A stretch of DNA of 64,000 nucleotides from an uncultured Candidatus Saccharibacteria bacterium (GTDB lineage Bacteria > Patescibacteriota > Saccharimonadia > Saccharimonadales > JAGPDM01). The position numbers and the translations under genes are program-made. Shown here one piece after another: positions 35,773 to 64,000 of the stretch. The notes under the pieces are model-generated. The model saw only the letters and a list, made by a program, of their open reading frames with translations. It was not told the origin of the DNA and searched no databases. The stretch covers positions 9,360-73,359 of the forward strand of contig CAZUNB010000001.1 of the NCBI GenBank assembly GCA_964622235.1, in the 5' to 3' direction. Positions within the stretch are counted from its first letter, which is position 1. Each line of letters opens with the position of its first letter.

Positions 35773-38700
35773 ATGCAAACAATCGAACAAAATCAACCTG
35801 AGACTATGCAACACCCTGACCACAGTGGTATCACTGCTGAAATCATCGCAGGAATCGGAGCCCTTGCCAGTCTTGATTTAGCAGTCAATAAACCTGGGTG
35901 GATTCGAAACATATCACCGCAGGATGTTATTGCTGGAGACTCTTTATCAGAATCTCTCGGTTTGCCCGGCGAGAGAGAGCCGCATACAGACGACTGGCTA
36001 ACGGACGAGGACCGAACTGCAACTCAGGCAGCAATTAAGCGCATAACTAAGGAACAAAAAGAACACCAGAAAAAGCGGTTAGCCGAAGCCGAGCAAGAAG
36101 AAAACCCGGAAGCAAGAAGGGCACTAGTTCTAGACGCGTGGACACACAACCCAGACACAGCTAAAAGAGTGGTGGGTTTTTTAAACGAAAGAGCAAAGCG
36201 AACACCTTCAAGCCGCCCATACTCAAGTCCAGACAATCCGGTAATGTCTGACGATGAAATTATTGAAGCAAGCGAATCTTCAAAAGGATTTCAAAGAGCG
36301 GTTGAATGGTGTACGACTCTTCGACCTCGTTTAATTCTAGAACGCGGGACGAAAGAAATCCTTGAGAGTATGGTTGATAAAAATGCTCTCACCCAGTCTG
36401 TTGTTAGTATGGCTGATGCCGATCCTGATTCTTTTGTATATCACCTCGAAGATATCCGAGACATAATTGATGACCCAGAGGCATTCGAAGGTGCCGTCCA
36501 AAAGGCGGAGAGAAACCTACCAGAACAAACGCTAGAACGACTTACTCAAATGGTTATTGACGAAAAAGCAGCAGGCAAGCCATCAAGCCAAATGGAGGAT
36601 CTTGCAAGATCAATGCTTGTACGCATGCGTGATAAACCATTAAATGCAGAGACGCTAGCAAACATTATTCAAGCCAAAATATGGACAAAAGAGGAGGTAA
36701 CTAAGCAAGTTTCTGGCGTTGCATCAACAGCACACGGTATTAGCTACTATAACGACTTCGGCTACGACAGACTATCCAAAGTAATTTCACCAGAGATGGC
36801 TGAAACAGCTAAACAGGCAGCCATAACCGCGATTGAAGACAACCCCAAAATGCTTTGCAGAGTGGCAGAAATAGATAGCAACCAGTTTCATAACGATGAA
36901 CTGGTTACTAATGGCGGGGTCATGAGCCCTGAACTACTCAACAAAACTGCAGAAAAACTACTGACCGATCCAACGCAATCATTTGGATTTTTCACTGGAG
37001 AATATCTCTCAGAACTAACCCCCGAAATAGGAAGCAGGGTAATTGATCGAATTATCGAGCTCAGCACCGACTACTATCCGTCAGAAGAAATCATGGAAAA
37101 AGCAAGCGATGAACAGCTCGGTTCAATTCTTGGTAACTTTACCCAGCATAAGCCCGGATTTTTACTTTCAGTGGTGGAAAATAATGAACGAGCGCTGGCG
37201 ATAGTCTGTGCAATGCCGCCGGACAATAAGCTAGAAATAATGGGTAGATTAAGCACGTATAACTTAATTAAATCGTCTGAAACATTGGAAACAATTGGGG
37301 TCCCAGCTGAAATAGTCGCTCAACAAATCAAATACTCATTTGACCGTAGCCCAGACATGAGTAGCCTGGTCTCAATTACAGATAAAGGCTTGCTCCCTCC
37401 TGACGACATTAGTGGGATGCGCGATCGACTAGTCGAAGCAGTAGCATCCGGCGAGACACGACCAGAGCAGTTTGTTGCAAACCGCGACCTCGATATTGAG
37501 GTTTTTAGCGATGAAGAATTAACGGCAGCAATAGCTGCAATAGGTGAAGCTAATCCTGCGGCTGGTTTTGCTTGCGCACTTAAGAACCGGGGATATTATT
37601 CAAAAACTGAGATTGAAAAGATTATCAGTACCGCAATATCTGATCATCTCGATGATGATTTATTGTTAAGTGAAGTCTTTGCGAATGTCTACAGCGGTAA
37701 AGAACCTATAGTCAGCATTGTTGGTGGTTCTCGAGTTGCAGATTTCGTCCAAGGACTATCAAGCAAGCAGCTTGACGGCATAGCCTACCGCCAAAACAAG
37801 ATCGCTGCGACGATAGGGGTAGAGGGAACGAAAGCCTTAGCTCATAAAATTGTACAAGAAAATCCAGCTAGCTTACTACTTGAAGAGTTCCGTGATTTCT
37901 ATGCGTCATTTTATCCTGATTTTGACCCAGATAGTTTTAAGGTAGAAGATTTACCAGAAAACACCGAAGTAAAAGATCTAGGTGGAAAATATCTAGTCGA
38001 TAAATGGAAGAAATTACAAAGTTCAACTTCCGAAATTAGGAGGTCAGAGATAGCAACTGAACTATCCTCATTGTATCAAAAAATTAATGACATAAAACTT
38101 AATGGCAATGCAGAAGGCGCCCAAAAAATAGTTGACTCGCTTAATGGCACCAAGGTAAGCCGGAGAGAAGTAATTGGATCTCTTTGGCTGTTTACTGAGC
38201 TGGGTGAAAATATGCCAGAATCAGTTGAAGCTTACAGTGATTTAGAAGAAATGCTAGTTGTCTCACTTGCAGATAAACTCGGTATGGAGGAGCCCAATAA
38301 AGAGCAGGTCAAACTATTAGTTGAAAGTGGTTTCCGCGTGTATAGCTTTGGTGTTTACGCCAACGAACACATGAACCCAGCACATAAAGAGGTGCTAGGT
38401 GCAATCCTAAAGTCTAGCTTGGATGAGAATTTTACAGAATGGAAATACGGTGGGGATACTGAAGACGATCTTGAGCATCTTAAGTCTAGCGGTCTCGTAC
38501 CCGAGAGTTTAACGTTAGACCAGTACCTAGCTTGGCAACATGACGAAACCACCGAAACGAGCATCGGGCTAGAACTTGGAGCATCAACAGCGCTTGCAGC
38601 CATCTCAGACACCATGACCGGCTACCAACCAGAACTCTTAATGACAGCTGCAGAAACAGACTATCAAGAGATAAAAGGTGAACTGCAAAGTATGGGGAAA

Positions 38701-39576
38701 ACTTTTGGACAAGTCCACGGAAAGCTTAAAAGGCTAAGAGTACTGAGAGATGATGCTCTAGAGGGAAGCAGAGAATACTCAAGAATTTCACTTAGTATAG
38801 ACGAACTTGACGAAGAGATTAAAGACCTCAACCAAGAAAAGTCTCAACTGCAACAATTGTTTGACGTGAAAACTTTACTAGATTTGTCGCTTAATCAGAT
38901 AAATGCAGGGAAAGTACAGGATGAAAAGGGAAGAGACAGAGACATTGGCGACCTACTAAATCGTTTATCAAAAAATACGCCGAAGTCTTACGCATTTATT
39001 ATCGGGTCCGTCGAAGATACCCTGGAGAACTTTAGAAAACAAAATAGCGGTGTAATGAATGTCTCCGTGGTAGACACTGCTGATTTATCAACAACCATCG
39101 AAATTGGGGCCTATCCTGCCGCATCGTGTCAACACTTTGATGGTGGTGTGGTAAATGAAGCCCTACTTGGATACACGGAGCCAACAACAAAACTATTGGT
39201 CGCCAAGAACGACAAAGGCACCCCAGTAGCAAGATCCGTCTTTAGGCTCATGACCAACAGTGAAGGCCAAACGTCTCTTCATCTTGAAAATGTGTATGCG
39301 GCGGAGCTAAGTGATGGAGTAATTTCCGCCATACTTATGGCAGCACATGCAAAAGCACAGGCAATGGGAGTCTCTCTTTTCGTCTCTTCAAAATCACAAG
39401 ATGCGGCCGGGAATATGATTCCAAATATTTTTGCGACATCTCCGATCCCACAAAAATCTACCGATACAAAGCTACGATCTACGGCAAGTATTCGCGCTCC
39501 ATCTATCTATGTAGACTCGAACGGAGGCTCAACGCAAAGACAGTACACATTAAATAAACTAGCTCTAATAGAGTAA
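35773..39576 (+). CDS. Large (1267 aa) soluble hypothetical protein, predominantly alpha-helical, no recognisable catalytic motif
   Basis: Uninterrupted 3.8-kb ORF with no TM helix, signal peptide or P-loop. It is acidic with a coiled-coil stretch around res 1020-1060 (EIKDLNQEKSQLQQLFD). Flanked by AT-rich promoter-like DNA upstream. Confidence 0.5.
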   Translation: MQTIEQNQPETMQHPDHSGITAEIIAGIGALASLDLAVNKPGWIRNISPQDVIAGDSLSESLGLPGEREPHTDDWLTDEDRTATQAAIKRITKEQKEHQKKRLAEAEQEENPEARRALVLDAWTHNPDTAKRVVGFLNERAKRTPSSRPYSSPDNPVMSDDEIIEASESSKGFQRAVEWCTTLRPRLILERGTKEILESMVDKNALTQSVVSMADADPDSFVYHLEDIRDIIDDPEAFEGAVQKAERNLPEQTLERLTQMVIDEKAAGKPSSQMEDLARSMLVRMRDKPLNAETLANIIQAKIWTKEEVTKQVSGVASTAHGISYYNDFGYDRLSKVISPEMAETAKQAAITAIEDNPKMLCRVAEIDSNQFHNDELVTNGGVMSPELLNKTAEKLLTDPTQSFGFFTGEYLSELTPEIGSRVIDRIIELSTDYYPSEEIMEKASDEQLGSILGNFTQHKPGFLLSVVENNERALAIVCAMPPDNKLEIMGRLSTYNLIKSSETLETIGVPAEIVAQQIKYSFDRSPDMSSLVSITDKGLLPPDDISGMRDRLVEAVASGETRPEQFVANRDLDIEVFSDEELTAAIAAIGEANPAAGFACALKNRGYYSKTEIEKIISTAISDHLDDDLLLSEVFANVYSGKEPIVSIVGGSRVADFVQGLSSKQLDGIAYRQNKIAATIGVEGTKALAHKIVQENPASLLLEEFRDFYASFYPDFDPDSFKVEDLPENTEVKDLGGKYLVDKWKKLQSSTSEIRRSEIATELSSLYQKINDIKLNGNAEGAQKIVDSLNGTKVSRREVIGSLWLFTELGENMPESVEAYSDLEEMLVVSLADKLGMEEPNKEQVKLLVESGFRVYSFGVYANEHMNPAHKEVLGAILKSSLDENFTEWKYGGDTEDDLEHLKSSGLVPESLTLDQYLAWQHDETTETSIGLELGASTALAAISDTMTGYQPELLMTAAETDYQEIKGELQSMGKTFGQVHGKLKRLRVLRDDALEGSREYSRISLSIDELDEEIKDLNQEKSQLQQLFDVKTLLDLSLNQINAGKVQDEKGRDRDIGDLLNRLSKNTPKSYAFIIGSVEDTLENFRKQNSGVMNVSVVDTADLSTTIEIGAYPAASCQHFDGGVVNEALLGYTEPTTKLLVAKNDKGTPVARSVFRLMTNSEGQTSLHLENVYAAELSDGVISAILMAAHAKAQAMGVSLFVSSKSQDAAGNMIPNIFATSPIPQKSTDTKLRSTASIRAPSIYVDSNGGSTQRQYTLNKLALIE

Positions 39577-42070: not shown

Positions 42071-42946
42071 TTATTTTGATTCAAGTCTTTTTTTGCTGAA
42101 TGCAATGAACACTATTGATAAAAATGCTAATCCAGCACTAGCTAGGTAGAGATGAGCAATGTTTGAACCAGTGGCTGGTAGCTGGGCGGAGGTTGGAGCG
42201 TTTCCCTCTGGTGCAGAAGAAGTAGTTTGGCTAGCAGATGCTTGACTAGCACAGCCAGCATCATCGTAAGTTAGCTCGGCAGTTTCGATTGTTGTTTGGG
42301 CGGTTGTGGTTTGACCACCAATCCATTGTTGAATGTAAATTCCAATGTCGTCCTGATTGTAGCCCGTAATATCCCAAGTTGCGTCAAGTCGACCTGCGTA
42401 GCCAAGACTGGCTGGGAAAAAATTAACACCATCACCTAAACCACGATCAACAGTAGCAAATGATGATTGGCCAAAGGCCACTGGAAGCCAAGTGTTTCCA
42501 TCCTCGCCAGTGGCAATCGTATAGTTATTAAGTAAAACCAAATCATTTGTGTTGTATAGACCCAGAAAAACACCTCCAACTGCTGCTTCATTTTGAGCTA
42601 TTGTGTTTGTTGTTAGCCGAATATTTTGTATTTGTGCTCCAGTGCAAAGAGAGGAGAGGTCGGCCCTCCAGCTATATCCAGCAGGAGGTTCAGCTGAGCT
42701 ACGGTCATCTAGATTTGTCGCTATATTGTTAGACGGATCTGTGATTACCACGCCAAGTTCAGAGACCAATTGCGAGCTTTCATCTGCAATGTGGATATCG
42801 TCATTGGCGGTAGTCGTATTAAGCTGAAGAGTCTGAGTAGCTGCCGAAACATTGATACCGCTTATACTGAAAATCAATAAAATACTTACAAACACTACAC
42901 CGCTAAGTTGTTTGATTCTTGTTGTTGAATGGTTTTCCACGCCCAT
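42071..42946 (-). CDS. LPxTG (LPATG) cell-wall-anchored surface protein
   Basis: N-terminal signal-anchor, then a Thr/Asn/Gly-rich beta-rich domain. C-terminal LPATGS plus hydrophobic helix plus KKRLESK tail. Confidence 0.6.
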   Translation of the reverse strand: MGVENHSTTRIKQLSGVVFVSILLIFSISGINVSAATQTLQLNTTTANDDIHIADESSQLVSELGVVITDPSNNIATNLDDRSSAEPPAGYSWRADLSSLCTGAQIQNIRLTTNTIAQNEAAVGGVFLGLYNTNDLVLLNNYTIATGEDGNTWLPVAFGQSSFATVDRGLGDGVNFFPASLGYAGRLDATWDITGYNQDDIGIYIQQWIGGQTTTAQTTIETAELTYDDAGCASQASASQTTSSAPEGNAPTSAQLPATGSNIAHLYLASAGLAFLSIVFIAFSKKRLESK

Positions 42947-53475: not shown

Positions 53476-53566
53476 GGAGAGGTGACCGAGCGGTTGAAGG
53501 TACCGGTCTTGAAAACCGGCAAGGCGTAACCCGTCTTCGAGGGTTCGAATCCCTCCCTCTCCGCCA
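53476..53566 (+). tRNA. tRNA-Ser (anticodon TGA), type II
   Basis: GGAGAGG-TG-ACC-GAGCGGTTGAA-GGT-A-CCGGT-CTTGAAA-ACCGG-(19-nt variable arm)-GAGGG-TTCGAAT-CCCTC-CCTCTCC-G-CCA. ORF-track entries 53367-53567 and 53395-53580 (-) overlap it and are spurious. Confidence 0.85.
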
Positions 53567-53605
53567 ATTAGATAGCCCACCGCTTAGGTGGGTTCTCTAA
53601 TTGGC
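53564..53605 (+). terminator. CCA-rooted bipartite hairpin (terminator-like) after tRNA-Ser(TGA), followed by a truncated pseudo-tRNA-Ser repeat (53606-53675)
   Basis: CCAATTAGAtagCCCACCgcttaGGTGGGttcTCTAATTGG: an outer 9-bp stem beginning with the tRNA CCA, plus an inner GC stem CCCACC/GGTGGG. The same architecture follows the other two tRNA-Ser genes. Downstream GCGCAGCAAAAAGGGTTCGgtgg matches the CAAAAAGGGTTCG core of the pseudo-tRNA family. Confidence 0.45.
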
Positions 53606-53721
53606 GTTTAGCAATCCGAGAACCCGTATTTTGCGCAGCAAAAAGGGTTCGGTGGAGTGATCAGAATCGAGAGACAAAAAAAGTTTACTTTTTCCAGAGA
53701 TGATTGAATGAAAGTTCGTAG

Positions 53722-54165
53722 GTGCAAGCCGAAGAATCAACACCTCATGTATTAATACCGTATACTAAACCAATGCCAAAAAAACCAATCCAAAAGCGCT
53801 ATGTTGCGCTAGCCTGGGGAACAGTACTATTACACACAGCAATCATGACTTGGTTTTGGATCGGGGCATTCTTGGTCTTTAACGGCTATCCCGAATTTGC
53901 ACTACAGCAAGTCGCCTACGTTGTCATAGTCGTTGGGGTTCATGAACTGTATGGCAGCTGCCCGTTCACAGTACTCGAGATTTGGGCACGTAAAAAATCA
54001 GGTATCAAAGACCGAGAAGTAGAGACATACTACGGATACTACATCTTCTGGAAGTTGTTTCACTATAAAGCCAGTATCCCGTTTCTAAGGCGATTCGTCA
54101 TCTTGTTCAAAATTTTACCTGGTATTTCACCACTTGTTCTAATAATCCAGCAAATATTGAACTAG
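53722..54165 (+). CDS. Hypothetical integral membrane protein (3-4 TM)
   Basis: 147 aa with hydrophobic helices at about 30-55, 62-82 and 120-145. No motif recognised. Confidence 0.4.
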   Translation: MQAEESTPHVLIPYTKPMPKKPIQKRYVALAWGTVLLHTAIMTWFWIGAFLVFNGYPEFALQQVAYVVIVVGVHELYGSCPFTVLEIWARKKSGIKDREVETYYGYYIFWKLFHYKASIPFLRRFVILFKILPGISPLVLIIQQILN

Positions 54166-54169
54166 AACG

Positions 54170-54832
54170 TTACGGACGAGCAAATACAGCTGCCTCAACA
54201 CGCTTTGCACCGGCTCCATCTAAAACGGCAGCGGCGGCTTCAAGTGTAGCGCCGGTACTGATTACATCATCAATCAGAAGGATTTTTTTATTTTCGATCT
54301 TTCTAGGATGCCTGGAATAAAAAGCATTTGCGAGTTGCTGTCGGCGCTTTTTGGCAGACTGGCCGACTTGTCGTTTATGACCTTGTTTTCCAAGCAGCTC
54401 AGCGTAGGGAATTTTTAACTGACGAGCAACGTGCTTAGCAATAATGCCAGGCGGGTTATATCCGCGCATGCGGTAGCGCTGCGAATCAGGTGGAATAGGG
54501 CAGACAACATCATAATCATCAGAAAGAATCACGTCTGCCAACTGTTTACCTAAAACTTTACCAGCGGCACAAGCACGTTCAAACTTATATTTACGTATTA
54601 GCTCCTTACCCAAACCTTCGTAGCGAGCTGCCACCCAGACACGTTTAACTGAGCTTTTACGACGACAAGTCGGACAAGTGGCATAATCATCACTCAGCGC
54701 CTTGCAGCGATAACAAGCCGATACGGGATGATGTAAAAAACTCAACAGACAAACTTCACAAACAATTGCACCTTCTGCACCACAACCAACACAGGTGTGT
54801 GGCGCAACAACAGAGATGATTGACTCAAACAT
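54170..54832 (-). CDS. comFC: ComF family protein (ComFC-like: N-terminal Cys4 zinc finger + phosphoribosyltransferase domain)
   Basis: N-terminal CxxC...CxxC pairs (CVGCG...CEVC...CYRC...CPTC), a C-terminal PRTase PRPP-binding motif (KKILLIDDVISTGATL), and a 220-aa length. Confidence 0.75.
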   Translation of the reverse strand: MFESIISVVAPHTCVGCGAEGAIVCEVCLLSFLHHPVSACYRCKALSDDYATCPTCRRKSSVKRVWVAARYEGLGKELIRKYKFERACAAGKVLGKQLADVILSDDYDVVCPIPPDSQRYRMRGYNPPGIIAKHVARQLKIPYAELLGKQGHKRQVGQSAKKRRQQLANAFYSRHPRKIENKKILLIDDVISTGATLEAAAAVLDGAGAKRVEAAVFARP

Positions 54833-54874
54833 AACCTTATCGTAGCAAAACCAGTTGTAGTTTTACCAACACCC

Positions 54875-54904
54875 TTGAGTTAGGTGATAGTTTTTGTGTA
54901 TACT
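54875..54904 (+). promoter_or_regulatory. Sigma-70-like promoter candidate for the Hsp20 gene (TTGAGT-18 nt-TATACT)
   Basis: TTGAGT at 54875-54880, an 18-nt spacer, TATACT at 54899-54904, about 65 nt upstream of the ATG at 54971. No CIRCE element is present here. Confidence 0.25.
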
Positions 54905-54970
54905 ACTGATAATACAAAGACCAAAAAACTTTTCAGGTGGAAAAACAAGACAACTAATGGGGGAGAGTGC

Positions 54971-55423
54971 ATGGCACGTAAACAACAGAATGATGATTTA
55001 TTAATCGATGATGAGCTAACAGCAGCTTTTCTGGGTGATGATCAGTCAGTAACCGCTGACGACAATAGTACAAACGATGACTGGAATGAAGAAGAAAGTA
55101 TTCCGGGGCAACTAGCCGTTGACGTTTATGAGACTCGTGAGAAGGTTTTTGTGATTGCGCCGATTGCTGGCGTTAACAAAGGTGATCTCGACGTTAGTAT
55201 CTCTGACAATACGCTGACTATCCAGGGAACTCGTTCGGTCAATACTGACGGGGCAGAGAACTTTTACCTGCAGGAAAGTTACTGGGGAGATTTTTCGCGA
55301 AGCATCACAATGCCAGTACCGGTTAAAGAGGACGAAATCGATGCAGTCCTCAAGGACGGTGTCTTGACAATTAGCTTTACCAAAGTCAAACAAGACACAA
55401 TTAAGAAGATTGAGATTAAGTAA
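54971..55423 (+). CDS. Hsp20/alpha-crystallin family small heat-shock protein; start set at MARKQQ
   Basis: Alpha-crystallin domain (LAVDVYETREKVFVIAPIAGVNKGDLDVSISDNTLTIQG...FSRSITMPVPVKEDEIDAVLKDGVLTISFTK). GGGGGA-type SD 8 nt upstream of the ATG at 54971. The 29 codons upstream in the ORF track lack an RBS. Confidence 0.85.
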   Translation: MARKQQNDDLLIDDELTAAFLGDDQSVTADDNSTNDDWNEEESIPGQLAVDVYETREKVFVIAPIAGVNKGDLDVSISDNTLTIQGTRSVNTDGAENFYLQESYWGDFSRSITMPVPVKEDEIDAVLKDGVLTISFTKVKQDTIKKIEIK

Positions 55424-55564: not shown

Positions 55565-56005
55565 TTATGATTGAGGAGCAAGGCTTGATGTCAGGAAGTT
55601 GACAGCACCAAAAGCTATGAAAGAAATGATAAGGCCGATAATCGCATACAAAATTGTATTCTTAGCTCCGGTAACTGCATTTTGGTCGCCGGCACTGATA
55701 ACATAACGGAAACCACCAACAATCAACATGATGACACTAACAGCGCCAACCAAAAAGAGCAAAATATTGACTACCTTGTTGAAAATACCATCCGCCCCGA
55801 AAAGTGTGTTCGCGTCTTGACCGGCTCTAGTGCTACCAATCGTGCATTTGGTTCCATTCACTAGTGGGTTTGTGTCGGTACCGATGCTAAGACATTCATC
55901 AGCTGCGGCAGCAGGAACAACGTATGTCATAAAACCAACAAACCCCATAGTTGTAGCTAGGCTAATCTTGCCAGTGGTTGATTGATAAAGTGTTTGTATA
56001 GTCAT
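55565..56005 (-). CDS. Secreted protein ending in a two-helix pilin-like module (TrbC/VirB2-type topology), paralogue 6 of 6
   Basis: Signal peptide (…VVPAAAADEC), a Cys-containing 55-aa segment, then VVNILLFLVGAVSVIMLIVGGFRYVISAGDQNAVTGAKNTILYAIIGLIISFIAFGAVNFLTS (helix-loop-helix). The loop GDQNAVTGAKN is shared across paralogues. Confidence 0.5.
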   Translation of the reverse strand: MTIQTLYQSTTGKISLATTMGFVGFMTYVVPAAAADECLSIGTDTNPLVNGTKCTIGSTRAGQDANTLFGADGIFNKVVNILLFLVGAVSVIMLIVGGFRYVISAGDQNAVTGAKNTILYAIIGLIISFIAFGAVNFLTSSLAPQS

Positions 56006-56089
56006 TAAATTTTTTCCTGTTTATGCTTATTGTTAAATGTATCAAAAATTCATACTGGGTGCAAGAGATATATAGGCGGGCGCCTGATT

Positions 56090-56497
56090 TTATAGACTGC
56101 TAACTATAAAGCTCACAGCGGCACGACCAAGGAAAGCAATTACTAATCCGATTACTGCATACAAAATTGTATTCTTAGCTCCGGTAACTGCATTTTGATC
56201 ACCAGCACTAGCAACATAGCGAAAACCACCAAGAACAATCATGATAACTGAGACTGCACCGACTAAGAACAGTAAGATATTGATAATACTCTGCATGATA
56301 GTCCCTATGTTGCGGCTGTCTCCTGAAGTACAAGTTCCTCCGGAGTATGTCCCGCCCGTTCCCTTACAGAGCTGCTCCTTAGAGTCGGCAGCACTTACTA
56401 TGCTGTGCTGACCGCTGGGGGTAGTGACTGGAAGAATAACCGATGCTATTAATAGAGAAAATGCGAACATAAATGTAAATAATGATATTTTTTTCAT
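56090..56497 (-). CDS. Secreted protein with C-terminal pilin-like module (TrbC/VirB2-type), paralogue 5
   Basis: Signal peptide, CKGTGGTYSGGTCTSGD Cys/Gly segment, then IINILLFLVGAVSVIMIVLGGFRYVASAGDQNAVTGAKNTILYAVIGLVIAFLGRAAVSFIVSSL. Nearly identical to the module of paralogue 6. Confidence 0.5.
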   Translation of the reverse strand: MKKISLFTFMFAFSLLIASVILPVTTPSGQHSIVSAADSKEQLCKGTGGTYSGGTCTSGDSRNIGTIMQSIINILLFLVGAVSVIMIVLGGFRYVASAGDQNAVTGAKNTILYAVIGLVIAFLGRAAVSFIVSSL

Positions 56498-56509
56498 CTC
56501 TTATCCTTT

Positions 56510-56899
56510 TTATATGTTACTTAATACGAATGATACGATAGCTTGAGCTAGAAGCGCAACCACTAAACCGACTACAGCATACAGAATAGTGTCTTTGCTC
56601 TGTTTGACGGCATTCTGATCACCATTACTAATCACAAAACGAAACCCACCGTATATCATGGCGATGACCGATACACTACCAACAATGAAGGCGAGGGCAC
56701 TAATTACCTTGTCGCGAAGTGGGGTAACGGCAGTTTCAACGGTATCGCTACAGGTTGCATCAGGATCTACCAGCTGCAATTTAGCACACGCATCATCTGT
56801 AGCAGCACTTGCAAACACGGCAGGAGCGGGTGCGACTGCTAGAAGAGCCAACTGCGCCAGCATCACAAACCCTAGCAATAAAAATGTCGGTGTTTTCAT
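56510..56899 (-). CDS. Secreted protein with C-terminal pilin-like module (TrbC/VirB2-type), paralogue 4
   Basis: Signal peptide (…AVFASAATDDAC), then VISALAFIVGSVSVIAMIYGGFRFVISNGDQNAVKQSKDTILYAVVGLVVALLAQAIVSFVLSNI. A 4-nt ATGA overlap with the upstream gene. Confidence 0.5.
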   Translation of the reverse strand: MKTPTFLLLGFVMLAQLALLAVAPAPAVFASAATDDACAKLQLVDPDATCSDTVETAVTPLRDKVISALAFIVGSVSVIAMIYGGFRFVISNGDQNAVKQSKDTILYAVVGLVVALLAQAIVSFVLSNI

Positions 56900-57699
56900 C
56901 CAAAGACTCCCTTCATAAATCCTATAACTACTCGAATAATAAAAGGCACAAGGAAGACAAGCGCAAGACCGATTGAACCATAAATGATAGTGTTTTTAGC
57001 GGCAACTATCTTTTCTGGGTTGCCGGCCGACAACACATAGCGCAGCCCACCCGAGAGAACGATGATAACACCAATGCTGCCAGCCAAAAGATAAACAACC
57101 GGTATAACCTTGCCGAGGAATGTTTTGTCGTCTACATTGGGTAGACTTAACTCATCAGCCGTTCCAAGCTTAACAATACCAGCAGGCGGTGCTTTCTTTG
57201 CAGGGGTTTTCGGGGTAGGAGAGGTGGGAGCCTCCGGAGCAGCACCGCCACCCCCGCCACCAACCGATTTTTTACAAACATCAACCTTAGTCTTGCCTGT
57301 TAGTTTCTCGCATTTTACATATTCTTCCGCAACACACGTAAGTTTTTTACTGTCGGTATCGAACGGTGGATTCTTCGTGCAATCTCGTGGCTTATACTCA
57401 CTGCCGACAGTGAATGGCTTACCAACAGTAAGAGATTTGCAGTCCTCAGTTTTTACCCCGGCACCTCCAGCAGTTGCAAACAGAACATAGCACTTTTTTG
57501 GATCTTGTTTACCTTTGTCTTTGAAGTAGGATTTAAAGACAGCGTTATTACAATCTCCAGCCGTAACTTTATCACCAGATAGATAGCAACCAGGTGATGA
57601 TGCTGCGGATACCTTTACTCCGCTAGCAAAAAGTGAAAGTGTGGCAATCGCCACTACCATCAATAGCAGCATGCTGCTTAGGCGTGAAATATTTTTCAT
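56896..57699 (-). CDS. Pilin-module fusion protein: signal peptide + Cys-rich ectodomain + poly-Gly/Pro linker + C-terminal pilin-like module (start set at MKNISRL)
   Basis: 267 aa. About 10 Cys in the ectodomain, a GGGGGAAPEAPTSPTPKTPAKKAPPAG linker, then VIPVVYLLAGSIGVIIVLSGGLRYVLSAGNPEKIVAAKNTIIYGSIGLALVFLVPFII. The ATG at 57699 forms an ATGA overlap with the stop of the upstream gene. Confidence 0.5.
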   Translation of the reverse strand: MKNISRLSSMLLLMVVAIATLSLFASGVKVSAASSPGCYLSGDKVTAGDCNNAVFKSYFKDKGKQDPKKCYVLFATAGGAGVKTEDCKSLTVGKPFTVGSEYKPRDCTKNPPFDTDSKKLTCVAEEYVKCEKLTGKTKVDVCKKSVGGGGGGAAPEAPTSPTPKTPAKKAPPAGIVKLGTADELSLPNVDDKTFLGKVIPVVYLLAGSIGVIIVLSGGLRYVLSAGNPEKIVAAKNTIIYGSIGLALVFLVPFIIRVVIGFMKGVFG

Positions 57700-58067
57700 T
57701 TGAAGGTCCCGAGAATCGTACCGACGGCAAAAGTGGCGCCAACACAAATCACCAAGCCAATCACCGCATTGACGATGGTGTCCTTGCCGCTCTTGACTCG
57801 CTCTGGGCTTCCGCTACTAATAAGAATTAGAAACGCGCCATAAAATGTAAAGCCAATCGCAACATATATGCCAGCACCGAGCAATGCCTGAACTATATTG
57901 CCGGCTATCCGCCAAATATTGTCAAAGTCTTCGATGATTACGCCGCACGGGTTCGATCCACCAGAGTCCCGCGGCAATCCATTATGCCATGCAGGAAGTA
58001 ACAAGAAGGTATTGTCGCACGCGTCAGCGGCGAACAAAGATAGTTTAGTTAATACGACGTGCATCAT
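57696..58067 (-). CDS. Small protein with C-terminal pilin-like module (divergent paralogue 2)
   Basis: 123 aa: ...IVQALLGAGIYVAIGFTFYGAFLILISSGSPERVKSGKDTIVNAVIGLVICVGATFAVGTIL. Same helix-(S/A)G(D/N/S)P/Q...K(N/D/T)TI-helix logic. ATGA overlaps on both sides. Confidence 0.45.
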   Translation of the reverse strand: MMHVVLTKLSLFAADACDNTFLLLPAWHNGLPRDSGGSNPCGVIIEDFDNIWRIAGNIVQALLGAGIYVAIGFTFYGAFLILISSGSPERVKSGKDTIVNAVIGLVICVGATFAVGTILGTFK

Positions 58068-59095
58068 CCGATTATACCCCCTGGTATTAGGAAGTTCACC
58101 AGCGCAGCGAACAATAAGTAGATTGCCAGTCCGCCGAGAGCAGCTAATATTTTAGTTTTTGCACCAGCAATCGCCTGAGGGTTACCACGAGCTGAAGCGT
58201 ACTGGATTCCCGCTATACCGAGCACCCCAGAGATGATGATGCCAACACCAACTGCAGTGACTTTAACGGCAAGTTTAAGCATTTTAACGATACTATTTCC
58301 CTCAAGCCCCGCGTCTGGGTCGCTACAAGTAAGATCTTTTAACGGCCCAAAAGCCGCTTGAGCACACTTATCTTGTTCAAGCTTGCGCGCACAACTTTGT
58401 TCATCGCCAGCAGCTAAGCTCCCGTCTTTGTCTTTATCACAAACGCTATGTTGTTTAGTTAACGGATGCACAGCCTTCTCGCCTTCATCTTCTGGCCCAG
58501 CAGGGTCATCACCCTCAGGTGTCGTTGCACCTCCGCCGCTGTCTTCACCACCGCCGCCGGGGGTGGGTGAAGTGATCGGATCAGTGGTGCCAGGACCAAC
58601 GCCGGTTGACGCTAAGCAGGCCGAAATTAAAACTTTCGAGACCTGCTTCATGCACGTAACATTAGAAGCCGCGACACAGCCGGCACTTGATCCTCTATCG
58701 CTGGTACATTTTTCAACACCAAAAAGCTGATGGTAGCAGCTCTCGGTTTGAATTGAGCCTTTACTGACATTGGGTATGTTCGTACAGTAAGCAATAAGCT
58801 TCCATGCGCAGGTTTCATATTTTTTTGCATCGTCTTTTTTAGGCTTTTGAGCTAAAAGCCTACTGCGTATCGCGCGACAATCATTTGCGGTCTTTTCACC
58901 AACACCAAAGTTCTTATCAACCTTGCCGCTTGGCCCTGAAGTTGTGGGGGTACTTGTATCACCACTGCCATTGCTACCACCGCCGAAAGAAACTCCCGGA
59001 ACTTGTGCAGAAACTTGTGCAGCTAAAAAGAACATCCAAAATAAAGATATCAAAAAAACCGATACAAAAACTGATTTACGCAATGAGCCCATCAT
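58064..59095 (-). CDS. Pilin-module fusion protein: signal peptide + Cys-rich / Gly-Pro-rich ectodomain + C-terminal pilin-like module (paralogue 1)
   Basis: 343 aa. Signal peptide (…AAQVSAQVPG), about 12 Cys, the TSPTPGGGGEDSGGGATTPEGDDPAGPEDEGE acidic/Gly linker, then VTAVGVGIIISGVLGIAGIQYASARGNPQAIAGAKTKILAALGGLAIYLLFAALVNFLIPGG. Confidence 0.5.
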   Translation of the reverse strand: MMGSLRKSVFVSVFLISLFWMFFLAAQVSAQVPGVSFGGGSNGSGDTSTPTTSGPSGKVDKNFGVGEKTANDCRAIRSRLLAQKPKKDDAKKYETCAWKLIAYCTNIPNVSKGSIQTESCYHQLFGVEKCTSDRGSSAGCVAASNVTCMKQVSKVLISACLASTGVGPGTTDPITSPTPGGGGEDSGGGATTPEGDDPAGPEDEGEKAVHPLTKQHSVCDKDKDGSLAAGDEQSCARKLEQDKCAQAAFGPLKDLTCSDPDAGLEGNSIVKMLKLAVKVTAVGVGIIISGVLGIAGIQYASARGNPQAIAGAKTKILAALGGLAIYLLFAALVNFLIPGGIIG

Positions 59096-59634
59096 CTGTA
59101 TCCTACTTTCTGACCATCTTCATCAGTGAAATACATAGCTTTGATCTTTTTTGGACTCGAAAACTCCATCGTAATCAGCTGATTATCAGCATCCTCGAAT
59201 ACATTAGAGTTCGAACAGAAAATCTGAACTGTTTGTCTGTCCGCTGCCGGCTCACTGCAGTCTTCAAGGTTAAATCTACCGAGGAGCGTAGACAGAAAAT
59301 ATGCTGGCTGATAAAAGGGAATATCTTCACCGATTTCAAATTCAGGATTATAGTTCATGGTCGAGTAGTCGTTAATGCGCGCAGTGTCTAGATTCACAAT
59401 TGCATCGATCATTTCTTTTGATGTGTTTATTTGATCAAGCTCCTGAAGCGCTAAACTATCCTCGATTTTGGCTTGTTTAGCTTCAGCGGCGAGCTCAGCT
59501 TTAGTCGGCTGCTGTAAATACCAAGCTAAAAAACCGATTCCTCCAACCAAAATGATTGCCAATAAGATAAAAGGCCAACGAGGGACCTTCTGCGATGTCA
59601 TCAGTGCTTGTGAGTTATTTTTATTTTTGAACAT
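59092..59634 (-). CDS. Hypothetical bitopic membrane protein (first gene of the coupled pilin-module operon)
   Basis: 180 aa. N-terminal basic segment, one TM helix (WPFILLAIILVGGIGFLAWYL), then an about 130-aa extracytoplasmic domain. VirB8-like topology but smaller, with no motif. Confidence 0.4.
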   Translation of the reverse strand: MFKNKNNSQALMTSQKVPRWPFILLAIILVGGIGFLAWYLQQPTKAELAAEAKQAKIEDSLALQELDQINTSKEMIDAIVNLDTARINDYSTMNYNPEFEIGEDIPFYQPAYFLSTLLGRFNLEDCSEPAADRQTVQIFCSNSNVFEDADNQLITMEFSSPKKIKAMYFTDEDGQKVGYR

Positions 59635-59711: not shown

Positions 59712-59740
59712 TTGACAATACTGAACTAATGTAAGATAAT
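59712..59740 (+). promoter_or_regulatory. Sigma-70-like promoter candidate (TTGACA-17 nt-GATAAT) in the divergent region between the pilin operon and the 59770 gene
   Basis: TTGACA at 59712-59717, an exact 17-nt spacer, GATAAT at 59735-59740, 30 nt upstream of the ATG at 59770. Confidence 0.35.
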
Positions 59741-59769
59741 GCATAGATTAAACAGGAATAACCATAGCT

Positions 59770-60711
59770 ATGACAATCACTCCAACAGACATACCACTAT
59801 CTGGAGAAGGCGGCGAAGAGCAAGTGCCACCTATAGGTGAACAAGGGCAGCAGCCTGACGGACAACCATTTGATGGCATGGGTGATGCGCTGGATGGTGA
59901 TGCTGCCGAGCTACGAACCGATAGTGTGAGTGAGCAGCCGCCAGACGATTCAGCTGAAGAGATTGTCGTTAGCCCAAGCAATAGAAGGATGTCTCGTCGA
60001 GGATTCTTAGGAGCTGGAGCTGCGATCGTTGGTCTGACAGTAATTTTTGGCCCTAAAGTCGTCGACTCCTTTTCCCAGCCATCCGAACCAATCGCCCCAA
60101 CTGATGGATCTGATACAGACAATAGCCCGACTGACACGAGCGACACAGCGAAAGACACCTTACCCCAAATGGAAGAGTGGGACGGCACAAAAGAAGATCT
60201 GTGGGAGGTTGCTCCGGGGGATGCAAATAGGAACTTCTTCCTAGATCCATACGCCCCAAATTCATTCGACGCGGAGCAAGTTACTAAGAGAAACTTTGTT
60301 CGGTCCTTCGACCATATCGTTCTTGGGCTTCTTTACCAAGATAAACTAGGCAAAGACCCTAATGAATACGCAACTTTTTTCGCCAGTTCAGACGTAGCGA
60401 ATCAAGCTCGTGAATTTTTCGGTGACGGTGAAGGCACACATTCGGGTGCATACATCAGGGGCTTTAATGAAAATGTCGAGACGAAGGGTGAAGACCCGAA
60501 CGGTTTAGAAAAGTTAATGCTTGATGTTGTTCCGCCCCCTGGGAAAGAGGGCGCTGTTCAAATTGGGCTATTCGATCCAAAAAATGGAGAGAGATACAAA
60601 CCAGCTTGGGCTACTTTTGGTTATAGCAATAAAGGCCACTATGTCCTAACAGGCATTTTCGACCATGATCCAACAGATGAAGACTTTCTGTCTACGCCAC
60701 CGCTAGAGTAG
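59770..60711 (+). CDS. Hypothetical exported/membrane-anchored protein with internal twin-Arg motif (SRRGFLGAGAAIVGL)
   Basis: 313 aa. Acidic 73-aa N-terminus, then RRMSRRGFLGAGAAIVGLTVIFG (Tat-like S-R-R-x-F-L-G plus hydrophobic core), then an about 220-aa Asp/Thr-rich domain. An alternative start at ATG 59989 (MSRRGFLG, GAAGGA SD) would make the RR motif N-terminal. Confidence 0.45.
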   Translation: MTITPTDIPLSGEGGEEQVPPIGEQGQQPDGQPFDGMGDALDGDAAELRTDSVSEQPPDDSAEEIVVSPSNRRMSRRGFLGAGAAIVGLTVIFGPKVVDSFSQPSEPIAPTDGSDTDNSPTDTSDTAKDTLPQMEEWDGTKEDLWEVAPGDANRNFFLDPYAPNSFDAEQVTKRNFVRSFDHIVLGLLYQDKLGKDPNEYATFFASSDVANQAREFFGDGEGTHSGAYIRGFNENVETKGEDPNGLEKLMLDVVPPPGKEGAVQIGLFDPKNGERYKPAWATFGYSNKGHYVLTGIFDHDPTDEDFLSTPPLE

Positions 60712-60959
60712 AAAGCTCAAAGTTCATCCTTAGCGCTAGATCGGCATAGGCGTCAACGCACACAACTACCCTGAAAAAGAACCATGAAGTGAATCTATGT
60801 TCAGCTGTTTAATCTAGCGCAAGTTACAGTAGCCCTCCAAGCCCATACTTTAATATAGAGCTACAACTATTATGTCCATAGCCCAAACCAACACATTATA
60901 TTAGTTATTGCTTTTTATATTCTGACGATGTTATCATTTGTCCATAAGCATAATGAATT

Positions 60960-62276
60960 ATGTTAGGTGAAATGAAAAAAATAAAAAAGATTATCTTTAC
61001 TGGTCTTGGAACATTTGTCGTATTGTTTTCTACAATCGTAGCTCCTTTGAGTCCATTGATAATAACGATTGATGCCGCGCCATATGATGATGCTATTGAT
61101 ATAACCACTAAAGAATACAAAGCATGGCGATCATGGCTAGTACTTGAAAAGTGCATAAACTTTAGTGGCAACAAGGGTGGCGACAAGGTCAAAAATGCTA
61201 TATTTGAGCACCCGAACTCAGGAACGATTCCGGCCAACTCGTTCGGTTGGCATAACACGAACTCGCTCGGTGGTGGAAATGGCGCGACGGATGGAGTTGG
61301 GAGATTTATCGATAAAAAGGACGGTGAGATTGACTGCAACACTGAGGCAGATCTTGAGATTGCCATGGCGAACCTCGGTTACAAGAAATATGGGGACTTC
61401 ATGAAAGCAATAACTTCTGATCAAAGACTCCCTGATGATATGTTTAAGCTTAAGTACTCTTCCGAAAAAGCTATTGGCGCGGCAGTAGCTAAACACGCTA
61501 AAGAAGAAGGCTTAATTAGGAGTGAAAGCAATCTCTTTACACTACCGGCCGAGTCAGTTTGGGTTTATTGGGCGTCACTCGCAATTGCAAAGGTTGAGAA
61601 CTCTGCATTTGGCAACACCGAAGGAACCTGTAAAGGAAAATTTGGTACTGAAGCGGACTTAAAAAAAGACAAGACCAGTGAGTCAAGTATTGTAAGGCCC
61701 GGCTTAATCGACAAGGACGCCAAAGAGATCGATGGCTGGAGCGATAAAGCTACAGAAAAAGGCTGGGAGTACCTTCTGCTGCCAGAGAAAAAAGCTAATG
61801 CTGCAGCTAATGCAATTGACGGAAGAATGACATCAGGCAAGTCGACATCATGCACCGAGATAGCCAAAGAAGCAACCAAGGATTTTCGGGTTGCAGCCTT
61901 CGCAAACTTGGTTAAAAAAATCAAAATAGAGTGTGAAAAAGATCCAAATGCCGACTGTGAAAGTAGTATCAAAGATTCCTCAGATGCCGCACTTCAAGAA
62001 GATGGGGCTGGTGACGATGACGTAGAGAGCTGCGAAGTTGGTTCGGGGTTATTTGCGAAAGCACTTGGTTTCGTTGTCTGCGCCGTTGTTGATATCACCT
62101 TCAGTATCGTTGACTGGGCAGAGAACAATATCATCATCCCATATCTTATCGTTTCTCCTCTAGAACAAGGCTCAGATTCGCCAGCCTATACAATGTGGGG
62201 CTATATGCGCGATATCTCTAATGTGATGCTGGTACTAGCCTTGCTATACTTAGCCTACTTAAAGGCGATGTCGTAA
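60960..62276 (+). CDS. Hypothetical membrane protein: signal/anchor + Cys-containing Lys-rich ectodomain + 2 C-terminal TM helices
   Basis: 438 aa. N-terminal hydrophobic helix (IIFTGLGTFVVLFSTIVAPL), an about 330-aa ectodomain with about 10 Cys, and C-terminal helices (LFAKALGFVVCAVVDITFSIV and MLVLALLYLAYL). The stop overlaps the next start (TAATG). Confidence 0.45.
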   Translation: MLGEMKKIKKIIFTGLGTFVVLFSTIVAPLSPLIITIDAAPYDDAIDITTKEYKAWRSWLVLEKCINFSGNKGGDKVKNAIFEHPNSGTIPANSFGWHNTNSLGGGNGATDGVGRFIDKKDGEIDCNTEADLEIAMANLGYKKYGDFMKAITSDQRLPDDMFKLKYSSEKAIGAAVAKHAKEEGLIRSESNLFTLPAESVWVYWASLAIAKVENSAFGNTEGTCKGKFGTEADLKKDKTSESSIVRPGLIDKDAKEIDGWSDKATEKGWEYLLLPEKKANAAANAIDGRMTSGKSTSCTEIAKEATKDFRVAAFANLVKKIKIECEKDPNADCESSIKDSSDAALQEDGAGDDDVESCEVGSGLFAKALGFVVCAVVDITFSIVDWAENNIIIPYLIVSPLEQGSDSPAYTMWGYMRDISNVMLVLALLYLAYLKAMS

Positions 62277-64000
62277 TGGGTGGCGGAAACGCAGCATACA
62301 ATCTTAGAAAGATGGCTCCGAGAATCTTGATTGCATTTATCGGGGTGCAATTGTCATTCTTTTTATCTTCACTAATGATCGATATTTTCAATGGGCTTGG
62401 TAGTGGTGTTGCCAACCTTTTTTACCAAATCGCTGACGCCAACAACATTCCGATTGTTGACACCACCGCAATACAAGGCGGTCAGCTCGGTCAAGGAGCG
62501 GCAATTTTGGGTCTGGGAACAGCGGCGGCGGCTGGAATCTTGACTACAGCCGCCGCGGGCGGTGGCATCATACCAGCCATGGTTGGGTTTGGCGTTATGG
62601 CCTTGATTGTTGTTATCGTGGCTGGCTTAACGTTGGTCCTGCGCCAAATCCTTATTATCGGATTAGTCATTGTATCCCCACTAGCATTTGTGGCCTACCT
62701 CATACCAAACCTCGAGCAATACTTCAAAAAATGGTGGTCATCCTACCTAAAACTACTGATGATGTATCCGCTAATCGTTGGGCTTTTTGGTGTTGGTAAG
62801 ATTGCCGGACAAATTGCCAGCATCACAGCCGCAAACGCACAAGGCACACCAGGTAATGGCGGTATTGCTAGCAGTCCTACGATGATTTTAATGGCGTTCT
62901 TAGCCAATGTTATTCCGCTCGGTCTCGTTCCATATACCCTCAAGTTCGGAGGGGGAATTATGGCTGCTGGAGGTAACATCGGCCGACAGCTCGGATCGAA
63001 AACAGGCAAGACTTTGCGCGATCCAAACAGCCGATTCTTAAGAAGCTCAAAAGACAATGCCGCTAAAAAAGGACAGCTCAAAAGAGACAGGCGGGTTCAG
63101 GGCCAACAATCCGAGGACGCCACAAACTATGGGCTTGGTCGAGCGCTAAAGAAGCTGCCAGGTAAGGGCGGAATAGCTAACGCGTATGCGGGTGCGCACA
63201 AAGCCGTAACAGGCAAAGAGGGTTTACTCTCCAATTTCCGAAGCGCCACCGCTAAACAAGCGCGACACGAGCGCCTCGAGGCAGGCAACGATGAGGCAAT
63301 AAAGCGCAGAGACGAAGCTGCAGCAGCAGCATATCGACCAGAGAAAGCCGTTGGAGCTGGTATATTTGCGCAAACTGGCGGCGACCATGATCTTATAAAA
63401 AAGAAGAGAAATGAACTAGAGGCAGCTGTTGAAGCAGGCGAGCAAGATCAAGTAGTTTTGGATGGGTTCAACGAAATGGCGCAGTATGAAGGTAACGATG
63501 AGGCAGTCTTTGCGGCAGCTCGCTTTGCAATGCAACACGACAAAGCTGGATCCAACATGACGGAAAGAGGAGAATTCTTAAATAATGTCATTCAGAATGT
63601 TGATACTTCAACCGAGGGAGGCAAGGCACGAGCAGCGGCCTTTGTCGCTTCGACAGCAGGCATCGGACACCCATACAGTAAAGACATTGGCATGACCTTC
63701 GACGGAGAAGGCCCTGACGCCAAACCTGTTATTAACTTCGGCTCTAAGGCCGGCAAGGGCTATAACGCAGAACAAGGCTTCGCCTATGCAATGTCTAAAC
63801 ACCAAAGCTACAATCTTAGCAACCTCAACGATGGCCAGGTTACAGAACTGCTTGATCATAACGTACGCCTGGCGACAGACAGCTCCTATGCCACTATGGA
63901 GTCACTACGAACTGGCAAGTCAGTTAAAGCAGTTCAAGGGAATGCCGAGAAGAATATTCGGGATATGTACAGTTACAACGCCCAGTCTAGAGCTGGTCTC
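62276..64000 (+). CDS. Polytopic Gly-rich membrane protein with long hydrophilic C-terminal region, TrbL/VirB6-like candidate (partial, runs off the window end)
   Basis: My own translation from ATG 62276 stays open to the window end (at least 574 codons). The ORF track does not list it because there is no stop. N-terminal about 250 aa form 5-6 hydrophobic helices with Gly-rich loops (GGQLGQGAAILGLGTAAAAGILTTAAAGGGIIPAMVGFGVMALIVVIVAGL). The rest is charged and Ala/Lys-rich. Confidence 0.45.
   Translation, partial: MGGGNAAYNLRKMAPRILIAFIGVQLSFFLSSLMIDIFNGLGSGVANLFYQIADANNIPIVDTTAIQGGQLGQGAAILGLGTAAAAGILTTAAAGGGIIPAMVGFGVMALIVVIVAGLTLVLRQILIIGLVIVSPLAFVAYLIPNLEQYFKKWWSSYLKLLMMYPLIVGLFGVGKIAGQIASITAANAQGTPGNGGIASSPTMILMAFLANVIPLGLVPYTLKFGGGIMAAGGNIGRQLGSKTGKTLRDPNSRFLRSSKDNAAKKGQLKRDRRVQGQQSEDATNYGLGRALKKLPGKGGIANAYAGAHKAVTGKEGLLSNFRSATAKQARHERLEAGNDEAIKRRDEAAAAAYRPEKAVGAGIFAQTGGDHDLIKKKRNELEAAVEAGEQDQVVLDGFNEMAQYEGNDEAVFAAARFAMQHDKAGSNMTERGEFLNNVIQNVDTSTEGGKARAAAFVASTAGIGHPYSKDIGMTFDGEGPDAKPVINFGSKAGKGYNAEQGFAYAMSKHQSYNLSNLNDGQVTELLDHNVRLATDSSYATMESLRTGKSVKAVQGNAEKNIRDMYSYNAQSRAGL

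Follow-up and report, generated by a model that had tools for sequence, protein, structure and literature searches.

What do three membrane-protein genes lying back to back with a pilin array encode in the chromosome of an uncultured Candidatus Saccharibacteria bacterium? The genes in question, referred to below as g1, g2 and g3, lie on the plus strand of a stretch of 64,000 nt (contig CAZUNB010000001.1 of assembly GCA_964622235.1, positions 9,360–73,359; hereafter the window), and their open reading frames (ORFs) run divergently from a pilin operon on the minus strand. Saccharibacteria are very small bacteria whose life is spent on other bacteria. The region is a known type IV secretion system (T4SS) locus of Saccharibacteria and Patescibacteria, and its recognition here is a correct rediscovery of an already explained system. 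More specifically, it is very probably the membrane-platform end of a chromosomal, monoderm-type T4SS of the MPF-FATA-like kind (MPF, mating-pair formation), in which VirB6 would be made as two chains, g2 and g3, and g1 would be a bitopic counterpart of the protein SEML1_0012 of Southlakia epibionticum. The three genes and the junction between the last two are laid out as follows:

59770..60711, plus strand: g1, 313 residues, predicted to be bitopic.
60960..62276, plus strand: g2, 438 residues, the putative N-terminal half of a split extended VirB6.
62028..62273, plus strand: conserved C-terminal module of g2, residues 357–438 (SCEVGSG..GFVVCAVV..YTMWGYMRDISNVMLVLALLYLAY).
62274..62278, plus strand: TAATG stop/start overlap of g2 and g3, a likely point of translational coupling at the fission point.
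62276..64000 and beyond, plus strand: g3, 632 residues when complete, the putative C-terminal half of the split VirB6.

The system can be recognized by its gene order. The T4SS of S. epibionticum ML1, encoded by SEML1_0006–0019, was found to be essential, its pilin series included (Wang et al. 2023, Cell; PMC10633639). Its order is tRNA-Ser, ComF, Hsp20 and six pilins, then divergently VirB6 (1088 residues), SEML1_0012 and a VirB6-like protein (998 residues), followed by PrgI, a 293-residue protein, VirB4, a DD-peptidase and a lysozyme, with SEML1_0013 annotated as TrbL/VirB6 (PMC10633639). Two further features carry the comparison on the left-hand side:

53476..55423, no strand assigned: left flank common with the S. 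epibionticum locus, comprising tRNA-Ser (53476), DUF2784, a ComF-type phosphoribosyltransferase (54170) and Hsp20 (54884).
55565..59634, minus strand: divergent pilin operon, in which a 180-residue bitopic protein precedes six VirB2-like T4SS pilin genes.

The two loci thus have in common tRNA-Ser, ComF, Hsp20, six VirB2-like pilins, a divergent VirB6, a protein with a twin-arginine translocation (Tat) motif, PrgI, a TrsD-like protein, VirB4 and a DD-peptidase-type hydrolase, and in both a small protein with a twin-arginine-like motif adjoins VirB6. This synteny was judged from annotation and order (Tables S1 and S2 of PMC10633639) and not from sequence alignment, and sequence identity between the two loci is too low for direct detection. 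An earlier reading made from the sequence alone had taken the pilin array and the plus-strand genes for one surface-structure island that includes a VirB6-like protein, and both calls are correct because the gene order agrees with that of the S. epibionticum T4SS locus (SEML1_0006–0021).

The right-hand side of the locus lies past the window, whose last 575 codons in the frame of g3 are open; the sequence-only reading had rightly observed that the frame leaves the window without a stop and that g3 is for this reason missing from the ORF track. A look-up with the exact g2 protein returned 19 contigs (L001 and so on), five of which (L002–L006, assembled in ENA, Logan and JGI data) match the window at 100% identity across 4–9.8 kb and run past its end. 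They place the end of g3 174 nt beyond the window, at window-equivalent 64174, and continue with an inverted 588-residue gene, a PrgI/VirB3-like gene, a 288-residue TrsD/TraC-like gene, a 776-residue VirB4 ATPase and a protein of more than 1000 residues that matches VanY-type peptidases (wall hydrolases). The PrgI assignment is firm (PF12666, 60.5 bits, scored on the strain variant L001, with a precomputed match on the window-identical L002–L005 as well), whereas the TrsD-like assignment is weak (NF041427, 24 bits against a cut-off of 200, and a precomputed PF26593 TraC-like match). The VirB4, scored on L003 (100% identity with the window where the two overlap), is of the monoderm CD1110/TraG P-loop type (NF045971, 386 bits against a cut-off of 325; P-loop_TraG PF19044, 92.5 bits). 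The nearest relatives of g3 in genome databases belong to Candidatus Saccharibacteria metagenome-assembled genomes (MAGs), at 31–35% identity, and these MAGs share the order VirB6, PrgI, TrsD, VirB4, hydrolase; they were gathered with an alignment of three sequences.

The locus fits a broader pattern: Quinonero-Coronel et al. (2025; PMC12102498) showed the T4SSs of the Patescibacteria clade to be MPF-FATA-like, with PrgI, TrsD, VirB6 and arrays of 2–11 VirB2 genes, and a relaxase is mostly missing from them. The window shares with these systems a VirB4 accompanied by PrgI, TrsD, VirB6 and a VirB2 array, a chromosomal location and, among the ORFs scanned, the lack of a relaxase nearby, but a split VirB6 and cassette-like hypervariability are not described in that survey. 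The window also departs from the S. epibionticum arrangement in several respects. There, two single-chain VirB6-like genes (1088 and 998 residues) flank the Tat/NTF2 gene, whereas the window has one VirB6 split into 438 and 632 residues and the twin-arginine (RR) protein comes first in the operon; g1 carries a 73-residue acidic N-terminal extension, an additional 180-residue gene heads the pilin operon, and the inverted 588-residue gene stands between VirB6 and PrgI.

The assignment of g3 to the VirB6 family draws on its architecture, its family matches and its neighbors. Hydropathy predicts five transmembrane (TM) segments in its first ~215 residues, to which the C-terminus of g2 would add two; the core (residues 1–235) is Gly/Ala-rich (29% G+A), and the tail carries 42 acidic and 49 basic residues in the 340 that lie inside the window, out of a complete, predicted cytoplasmic tail of ~400. 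The TAATG overlap, the open frame, the Gly-rich polytopic part and the long charged tail that had been noted from the letters alone are all present. The suggestion that this is the architecture of a TrbL/VirB6 subunit holds up as well: the search with PF04610 (TrbL) gives a match to g3 at E 3e-4 over 174 of 215 profile positions (33–206 of 215 in each of three alleles), albeit under the gathering score; precomputed PF19590 (TrbL_3) matches at E at most 1e-5 cover g3 and 11 of 13 homologues; and adjacency to PrgI, TrsD and VirB4 is kept in all related loci. Because these family matches can be taken together with an invariant genomic context, we assign g3 as VirB6-like with high confidence, the strict Pfam threshold notwithstanding.

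The gene preceding it is best understood through homologues in which the two are one. The product of g2 contains 8 Cys, an N-terminal signal or anchor, a ~320-residue Cys-containing ectodomain and two C-terminal hydrophobic segments, and its translation probably starts at M5 (60972), where the homologues begin. Its last ~85 residues align (E 5e-7 to 7e-7) to the segment directly preceding the TrbL core of single-chain homologues (P0003, 845 residues; P0006, 1019; P0008, 1086; P0012, 630), a segment marked by a Cys...G-[WF]-x-V-C motif and a W-x2-[FM]-R...N...L-[AL]-L helix. Across the junction the sequences run on without a break, the window reading '...LYLAYLKAMS*' and then 'MGGGNAAYNLRKMAPRILIAFIGVQLSFF' where P0003 reads 'MYLVFTQTTSLNSDAYAVKRMAPRLILVTIGIQLSFF'. 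The two parts are fused in 44 of 48 evaluable metagenomic relatives, with 145–584 codons open upstream of the position that matches residue 1 of g3. A sister lineage (L012, L013 and L014), whose flanks have ~78% nucleotide identity to the window, has the same split with the same 1-nt overlap, in proteins of 429 and 629 residues; in L016 the g3 ORF begins with MGGGNAAYNL and g2 is broken by frameshifts. Judged from these sequences, the split is kept in three lineages, and g2 and g3 are read as an extended VirB6 in two pieces, g2 not being an independent protein. The description of g2 as a 438-residue protein with Cys residues was accurate, but its status as a separate Cys-rich membrane protein has to be given up, since it corresponds to the N-terminal half of VirB6, which most relatives make as a single chain. 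Searches for homologues of g2 found only g2 itself and P0019, and sequence and profile comparison with PDB chains gave nothing meaningful. Outside these lineages, the 3-kb contig L026 is broken at the same junction (L026:1–400), perhaps by a fission of its own or by a frameshift, and L044 has a single in-frame stop (5900–5920) inside the conserved module. A programmed frameshift that would join g2 and g3 was also considered and is unlikely, because the frame of g3 is open for just 18 codons upstream of its ATG and no slippery heptamer is present.

Monoderm VirB6-like subunits with large additional domains are familiar, ConG and TcpH among them. PrgH is another such subunit (PMC12857230; PMC12102498). 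The window version resembles these subunits and extended VirB6 proteins in having a polytopic core of at least five helices combined with large hydrophilic domains, and differs from them in consisting of two coupled ORFs and in its large, hypervariable, Cys-containing N-terminal ectodomain. In the proposed arrangement, g2 would supply the secreted or anchored Cys-containing ectodomain and the first membrane module, g3 would supply the TrbL-like polytopic core and the ~400-residue cytoplasmic tail, and the two chains would reassemble in the membrane. Together with PrgI/VirB3, the TrsD-like protein and VirB4 they would make up the translocon, and the six VirB2-like pilins of the opposite strand would be assembled from it, with g1 as a bitopic accessory subunit whose N-terminus is predicted to be cytoplasmic and whose C-terminal domain would lie outside.

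The remaining gene, g1, encodes 313 residues with the motif SRRGFLG ahead of its only hydrophobic segment, as had been recognized before and as ORF and hydropathy analysis confirm. An acidic, disordered N-terminus (residues 1–73) is followed by the motif and a Gly/Ala-rich hydrophobic segment (residues 75–98), an acidic linker rich in S, T and P, and a C-terminal alpha+beta domain of ~170 residues; the hydrophobic stretch proper (residues ~80–98) is preceded by RR/R, and the bitopic topology is predicted from hydropathy only. In S. epibionticum, SEML1_0012 has 278 residues, is non-essential in transposon sequencing, and carries a PF10518 signal at residues 11–33 and an NTF2-like domain corresponding to ECOD e4ec6D1 (PMC10633639). 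By position and architecture g1 is most likely the counterpart of SEML1_0012, and it is possibly a bitopic, VirB8-like accessory subunit. The ECOD entry presumably derives, as its name indicates, from PDB 4EC6, which is the VirB8-like TraM of pIP501. VirB8-like proteins of NTF2 fold (TraM of pIP501, PrgL and TcpC) share with g1 its predicted plan of a cytoplasmic N-terminus, one TM segment and a ~170-residue extracytoplasmic alpha+beta domain, while neither a twin-arginine-like motif nor a long acidic N-terminus is a known feature of such proteins. Homologues of VirB8 were found to be nearly absent outside class ABY1 in the Patescibacteria survey (PMC12102498). At the level of sequence g1 is nearly an orphan: a word-indexed search and a full phmmer search of 1.84 billion representatives returned only g1 fragments and one distant piece (P0017), and g1 and the three g1 alleles had no fold-informative match among PDB chains or in Pfam.

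Several results weigh against the reading set out so far. The PF04610 score of g3 (20.7–21.5 bits, E 2–4e-4) is below the gathering score of 25.9, and a local Pfam-A scan gave no PF19590 match for g3 or the homologues P0001–P0014 even at E up to 1, a discrepancy with the precomputed matches that seems to reflect different Pfam versions or libraries. A profile of g3 homologues matched no solved VirB6 chain in the PDB, and the AlphaFold2 (AF2) model of g3 from a 14-sequence alignment is too poor for fold comparison (predicted local distance difference test, pLDDT, 52.5; predicted TM-score 0.28). As for g1, it is matched to SEML1_0012 by position and architecture and not by sequence; the single-sequence AF2 model of its ectodomain (pLDDT 35) has helices followed by four strands, an order that is compatible with NTF2 and not diagnostic of it; and a search of 61 further loci, up to 6 kb from VirB6, found no comparable RR-motif bitopic protein, so that the RR-motif gene is not a general feature of these loci.

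Where g1 begins matters for what its motif can do. The sequence-only reading had proposed an internal start at ATG 59989, preceded by a GAAGGA Shine–Dalgarno (SD) sequence, which would have turned the motif into a true N-terminal Tat signal. The GAAGGA string occupies 59984–59989 and includes the A of that ATG, so it is not usable as an SD because the spacing is below zero. A start of the form M-(x)-TITP at the annotated N-terminus is common to the three alleles (window, L012 and L016), and in L012 no in-frame start codon follows codon 1 before the RR is reached. The internal start was rejected on these grounds, and the N-terminal Tat signal that depended on it goes with it. Translation most likely begins at the annotated ATG at 59770, which the sequences favor because in L012 codon 1, with AGGAG-N7 upstream, is the only in-frame start codon before the RR. 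Directly upstream of the g1 homologue in L012 (L012:8800–8860), an 18-nt string, ATTTAGGAGTATACCATG, which contains an SD and a start codon, is tandemly duplicated.

The motif itself can be located as follows:

59992..60063, plus strand: twin-arginine-like motif and hydrophobic segment of g1 (SRRGFLGAGAAIVGLTVIFGPKVV), supported by TIGR01409 and conservation among alleles, with a PF10518 match under the gathering score.

That g1 contains a Tat-like motif proved right. MSRRGFLG starts at residue 74, with the arginines at residues 76–77 of 313 and hence not in the position of an N-terminal signal peptide, and the pattern [ST]-R-R-x-[FL]-L, with a Gly/Ala-rich hydrophobic segment after it, is found in all three alleles (window, SRRGFLGAGAAIVGLTVIFG; L012, TRRNFLFGGAGLAAVAFGVLA; L016, SRRNLLRAGVGVALLASAA). 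A six-frame scan of the window found no other Tat-like motif with a hydrophobic stretch after it. As it is the sole such motif in the window and recurs in three very diverged alleles, its presence is evidently more than chance. It may serve chiefly as one element of a signal anchor. Tat signal-anchored proteins with uncleaved or internal RR signals are known, the Rieske proteins being an example; g1 resembles them in that its RR motif is followed by a mildly hydrophobic, Gly/Ala-rich segment able to stay as an anchor, and differs from them in lacking a cofactor-binding domain.

Among the alternatives, the one that survives best makes g1 a genuine Tat substrate, the folded C-terminal domain of which would be exported or anchored by TatA and TatC encoded elsewhere in the genome, with either a long n-region or an internal start. 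The agreement of SRRGFLG with the S/T-R-R-x-F-L-K consensus speaks for it, as does a TIGR01409 score of 17.5 bits, marginally over the cut-off of 16.7, and the retention of the motif and its Gly/Ala-rich h-region in three alleles of an otherwise unrecognizably diverged protein. PF10518 gives 17.8 bits on the L012 allele and 11.1 bits on the window's g1, both under the gathering score of 22.7. The distance from a conserved N-terminus to the RR is 74 residues in the window and 31 in L012, which lacks an internal start codon, and no AxA cleavage site is evident in g1. As for the machinery, Tat occurs in some environmental Saccharibacteria and other bacteria of the Candidate Phyla Radiation (PMC6031116; PMC9166423), but it was present in just one Saccharibacteria among those analysed by Starr et al. 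(PMC6031116), and the full annotation table of S. epibionticum has no TatA, TatC, PF00902 or PF02416 (PMC10633639), although SEML1_0012 bears the same motif. When the polytopic ORFs of the window were scanned with Pfam, no Tat component came up, none was seen in the ~8 kb that extend the window, and a tblastn search with E. coli TatA and TatC had no match in 272 kb of related loci, which is a weak negative for the whole genome. We regard a Tat substrate as unlikely, if still worth keeping in view, and prefer the signal-anchored accessory subunit described above.

A further finding concerns the speed at which parts of this locus change. Between the window lineage and L012, orthologues in the flanks and the core are 73–98% identical (for example, VirB4 85%, PrgI 88%, the TrsD-like protein 90%, the pilins 74–93%, the 180-residue protein 82% and g3 76%). 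Against this background, g1 has no significant similarity to its 302-residue positional homologue in L012, g2 is 37% identical overall with an almost identical C-terminal module, the inverted gene is 42% identical, and a blastn comparison of the window with L012 finds no match across 59752–62008. The allele in L016 is a third, intermediate one, ~41% identical to g1 over 76 aligned residues, with a g2 fragment that by visual estimate is nearer to the window's g2 than that of L012. From these allele identities, set against 73–98% for the rest, it follows that g1 and the g2 ectodomain change in step with each other and far more rapidly than the surrounding machine, which suggests that they are surface-exposed, host-facing parts under diversifying selection.

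A doubtful extension of this finding is that g1 and the ectodomain of the split VirB6 form a hypervariable, exchangeable cassette for host recognition, placed at the tip or the base of the T4SS and swapped among co-occurring strains, with the split allowing a swap that leaves the channel half undisturbed and with an RR motif that works independently of Tat. If the motif functions in a lineage that possibly lacks Tat, a Tat-independent role would indeed be implied. Swapping by recombination would be suggested by two mosaic contigs, if these are genuine. L001, whose g1 and g2 sequences are identical to those of the window, alternates blocks 100% identical to the window type with blocks 100% identical to the ~80%-diverged L012 type, with switch points near window-equivalent 62,450, 66,450 and 69,550; L015 is also mosaic, and error-rich with many indels. 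Both contigs reflect either recent recombination in the T4SS locus or chimeric metagenome assembly.

That the island is instead an integrative and conjugative element (ICE), which transfers DNA and plays no part in interaction with an epibiont's host, is very unlikely. Homology does link its components to monoderm conjugation machinery (CD1110-type VirB4, PrgI, TrsD), tRNA genes lie just upstream, and the GC content of g1 (0.488, and 0.53 in its N-terminal 73 codons) and g3 (0.496) is ~2 standard deviations (SDs) over the window background (0.422, SD 0.03 per kb). Nevertheless, the ORFs scanned in the 64-kb window and in its extension yielded neither a relaxase nor a coupling protein; among them the 588- and 1267-residue proteins and several others have no family match, and relaxases are generally absent from such loci in the published survey (PMC12102498). 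The locus is flanked by housekeeping genes, and the remainder of the window is ordinary chromosome, with genes for ValRS, GroEL, PGI, TsaD, a Mur ligase, FemAB, a RelA/SpoT-like protein, ABC transporters and tRNAs. Synteny with S. epibionticum across the entire arrangement, tRNA-Ser, ComF and Hsp20 included, argues for an old chromosomal locus.

Less probable still is that an inactivating frameshift or an assembly error in what was once a single VirB6 gene gave rise to the g2/g3 boundary, in a locus that is decaying. The single-chain VirB6 of most relatives and the additional frameshifts in the error-rich contigs L015 and L016 of this clade would be in keeping with such an origin. However, the precise TAATG boundary, at which no residues are lost, occurs in at least five independent assemblies of the window type and in at least three of the ~78%-identity lineage; both halves are full-length open frames, the segments that flank the junction are the best conserved, and the adjoining T4SS genes are intact. 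The split is, as far as the sequences tell, not an error, because the same 1-nt overlap recurs in the sister lineage. Finally, the idea that g3 is part of an unrelated transporter with spurious TrbL similarity, to which the sub-threshold PF04610 score and the failure of the g3 family to match solved VirB6 sequences lend some color, is highly improbable, given an alignment spanning nearly the whole TrbL profile in three alleles, precomputed TrbL_3 matches across the homologue set, an extension that links g3 to PrgI, TrsD-like, VirB4 and VanY-type genes in an adjacency conserved in all related loci, and a S. epibionticum counterpart, SEML1_0013, that is annotated as TrbL/VirB6.

Read as a split-VirB6 T4SS, the locus adds no new system; what is modestly new is the fission of VirB6, the co-divergence of g1 with the g2 ectodomain and the persistence of a twin-arginine-like motif beside VirB6. 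The role of the Saccharibacterial T4SS has been described as completely unknown, though it is essential for epibiotic growth (PMC11665869). A natural two-chain VirB6 separates the variable ectodomain from the channel core and would be useful for structural and genetic dissection, and the fast-evolving parts (g1, the g2 ectodomain, the g3 tail and the inverted 588-residue gene) are candidate determinants of host specificity in a locus otherwise 73–98% conserved. The twin-arginine-like motif is of interest in that it is conserved on a VirB6-adjacent protein both here and in S. epibionticum, the annotation of which lists no Tat translocase.

Some further features of the locus and the window can be added. 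The plus-strand operon is preceded by a strong candidate promoter, situated in the 135-bp divergent intergenic region, which is identical in the strain variant L001:

59712..59740, plus strand: sigma-70-like promoter of the plus-strand operon, TTGACA-17-GATAAT, 11 of 12 consensus matches.

On the other side of that region, the six tandem pilin genes occupy 55565–59095 on the minus strand and encode 343, 123, 283, 129, 135 and 146 residues; five of the six score above the gathering score of PF18895 (T4SS_pilin), and the sixth reaches 15.6 bits. The latter is the first pilin-like gene (58064–59095, minus strand, 343 residues), in which a long Cys-, Gly- and Pro-rich N-terminal domain precedes the VirB2-like hairpin, and which varies in length within the sister lineage (170 residues in L012, 358 in L013). 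The 180-residue bitopic protein at the head of the pilin operon (59092–59634, minus strand), 82% identical in the sister lineage and with no family match above threshold, could be a VirB8-like or pilus-assembly factor. The inverted gene between VirB6 and PrgI (L002:8646–10412, minus strand; window-equivalent 64220–65986) encodes 588 residues here and 522 in L001 and L012; it has no family match and does not occur in the L007 or S. epibionticum arrangements, and it may be a lineage-specific accessory protein or substrate of the T4SS.

Farther from the T4SS locus, the window contains a PurD (GARS_N, GARS_A, GARS_C) at 34433–35704 on the plus strand and an AIR-synthase-related PurM-like protein at 17333–18430 on the minus strand; both are noteworthy because de novo nucleotide synthesis is usually said to be missing from Saccharibacteria. 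A 1267-residue ORF at 35773–39576 on the plus strand shows a single hydrophobic segment, at its N-terminus, and matches nothing in Pfam at E up to 0.001. Lastly, three proteins encoded on the minus strand are predicted to sit at the surface, each with a signal at the N-terminus and an anchor at the C-terminus, and may be epibiont adhesins: an 852-residue NHL-repeat beta-propeller protein (8831–11389), a protein of 509 residues that has no family match (13471–15000) and a 291-residue protein of the LPXTG type (42071–42946).

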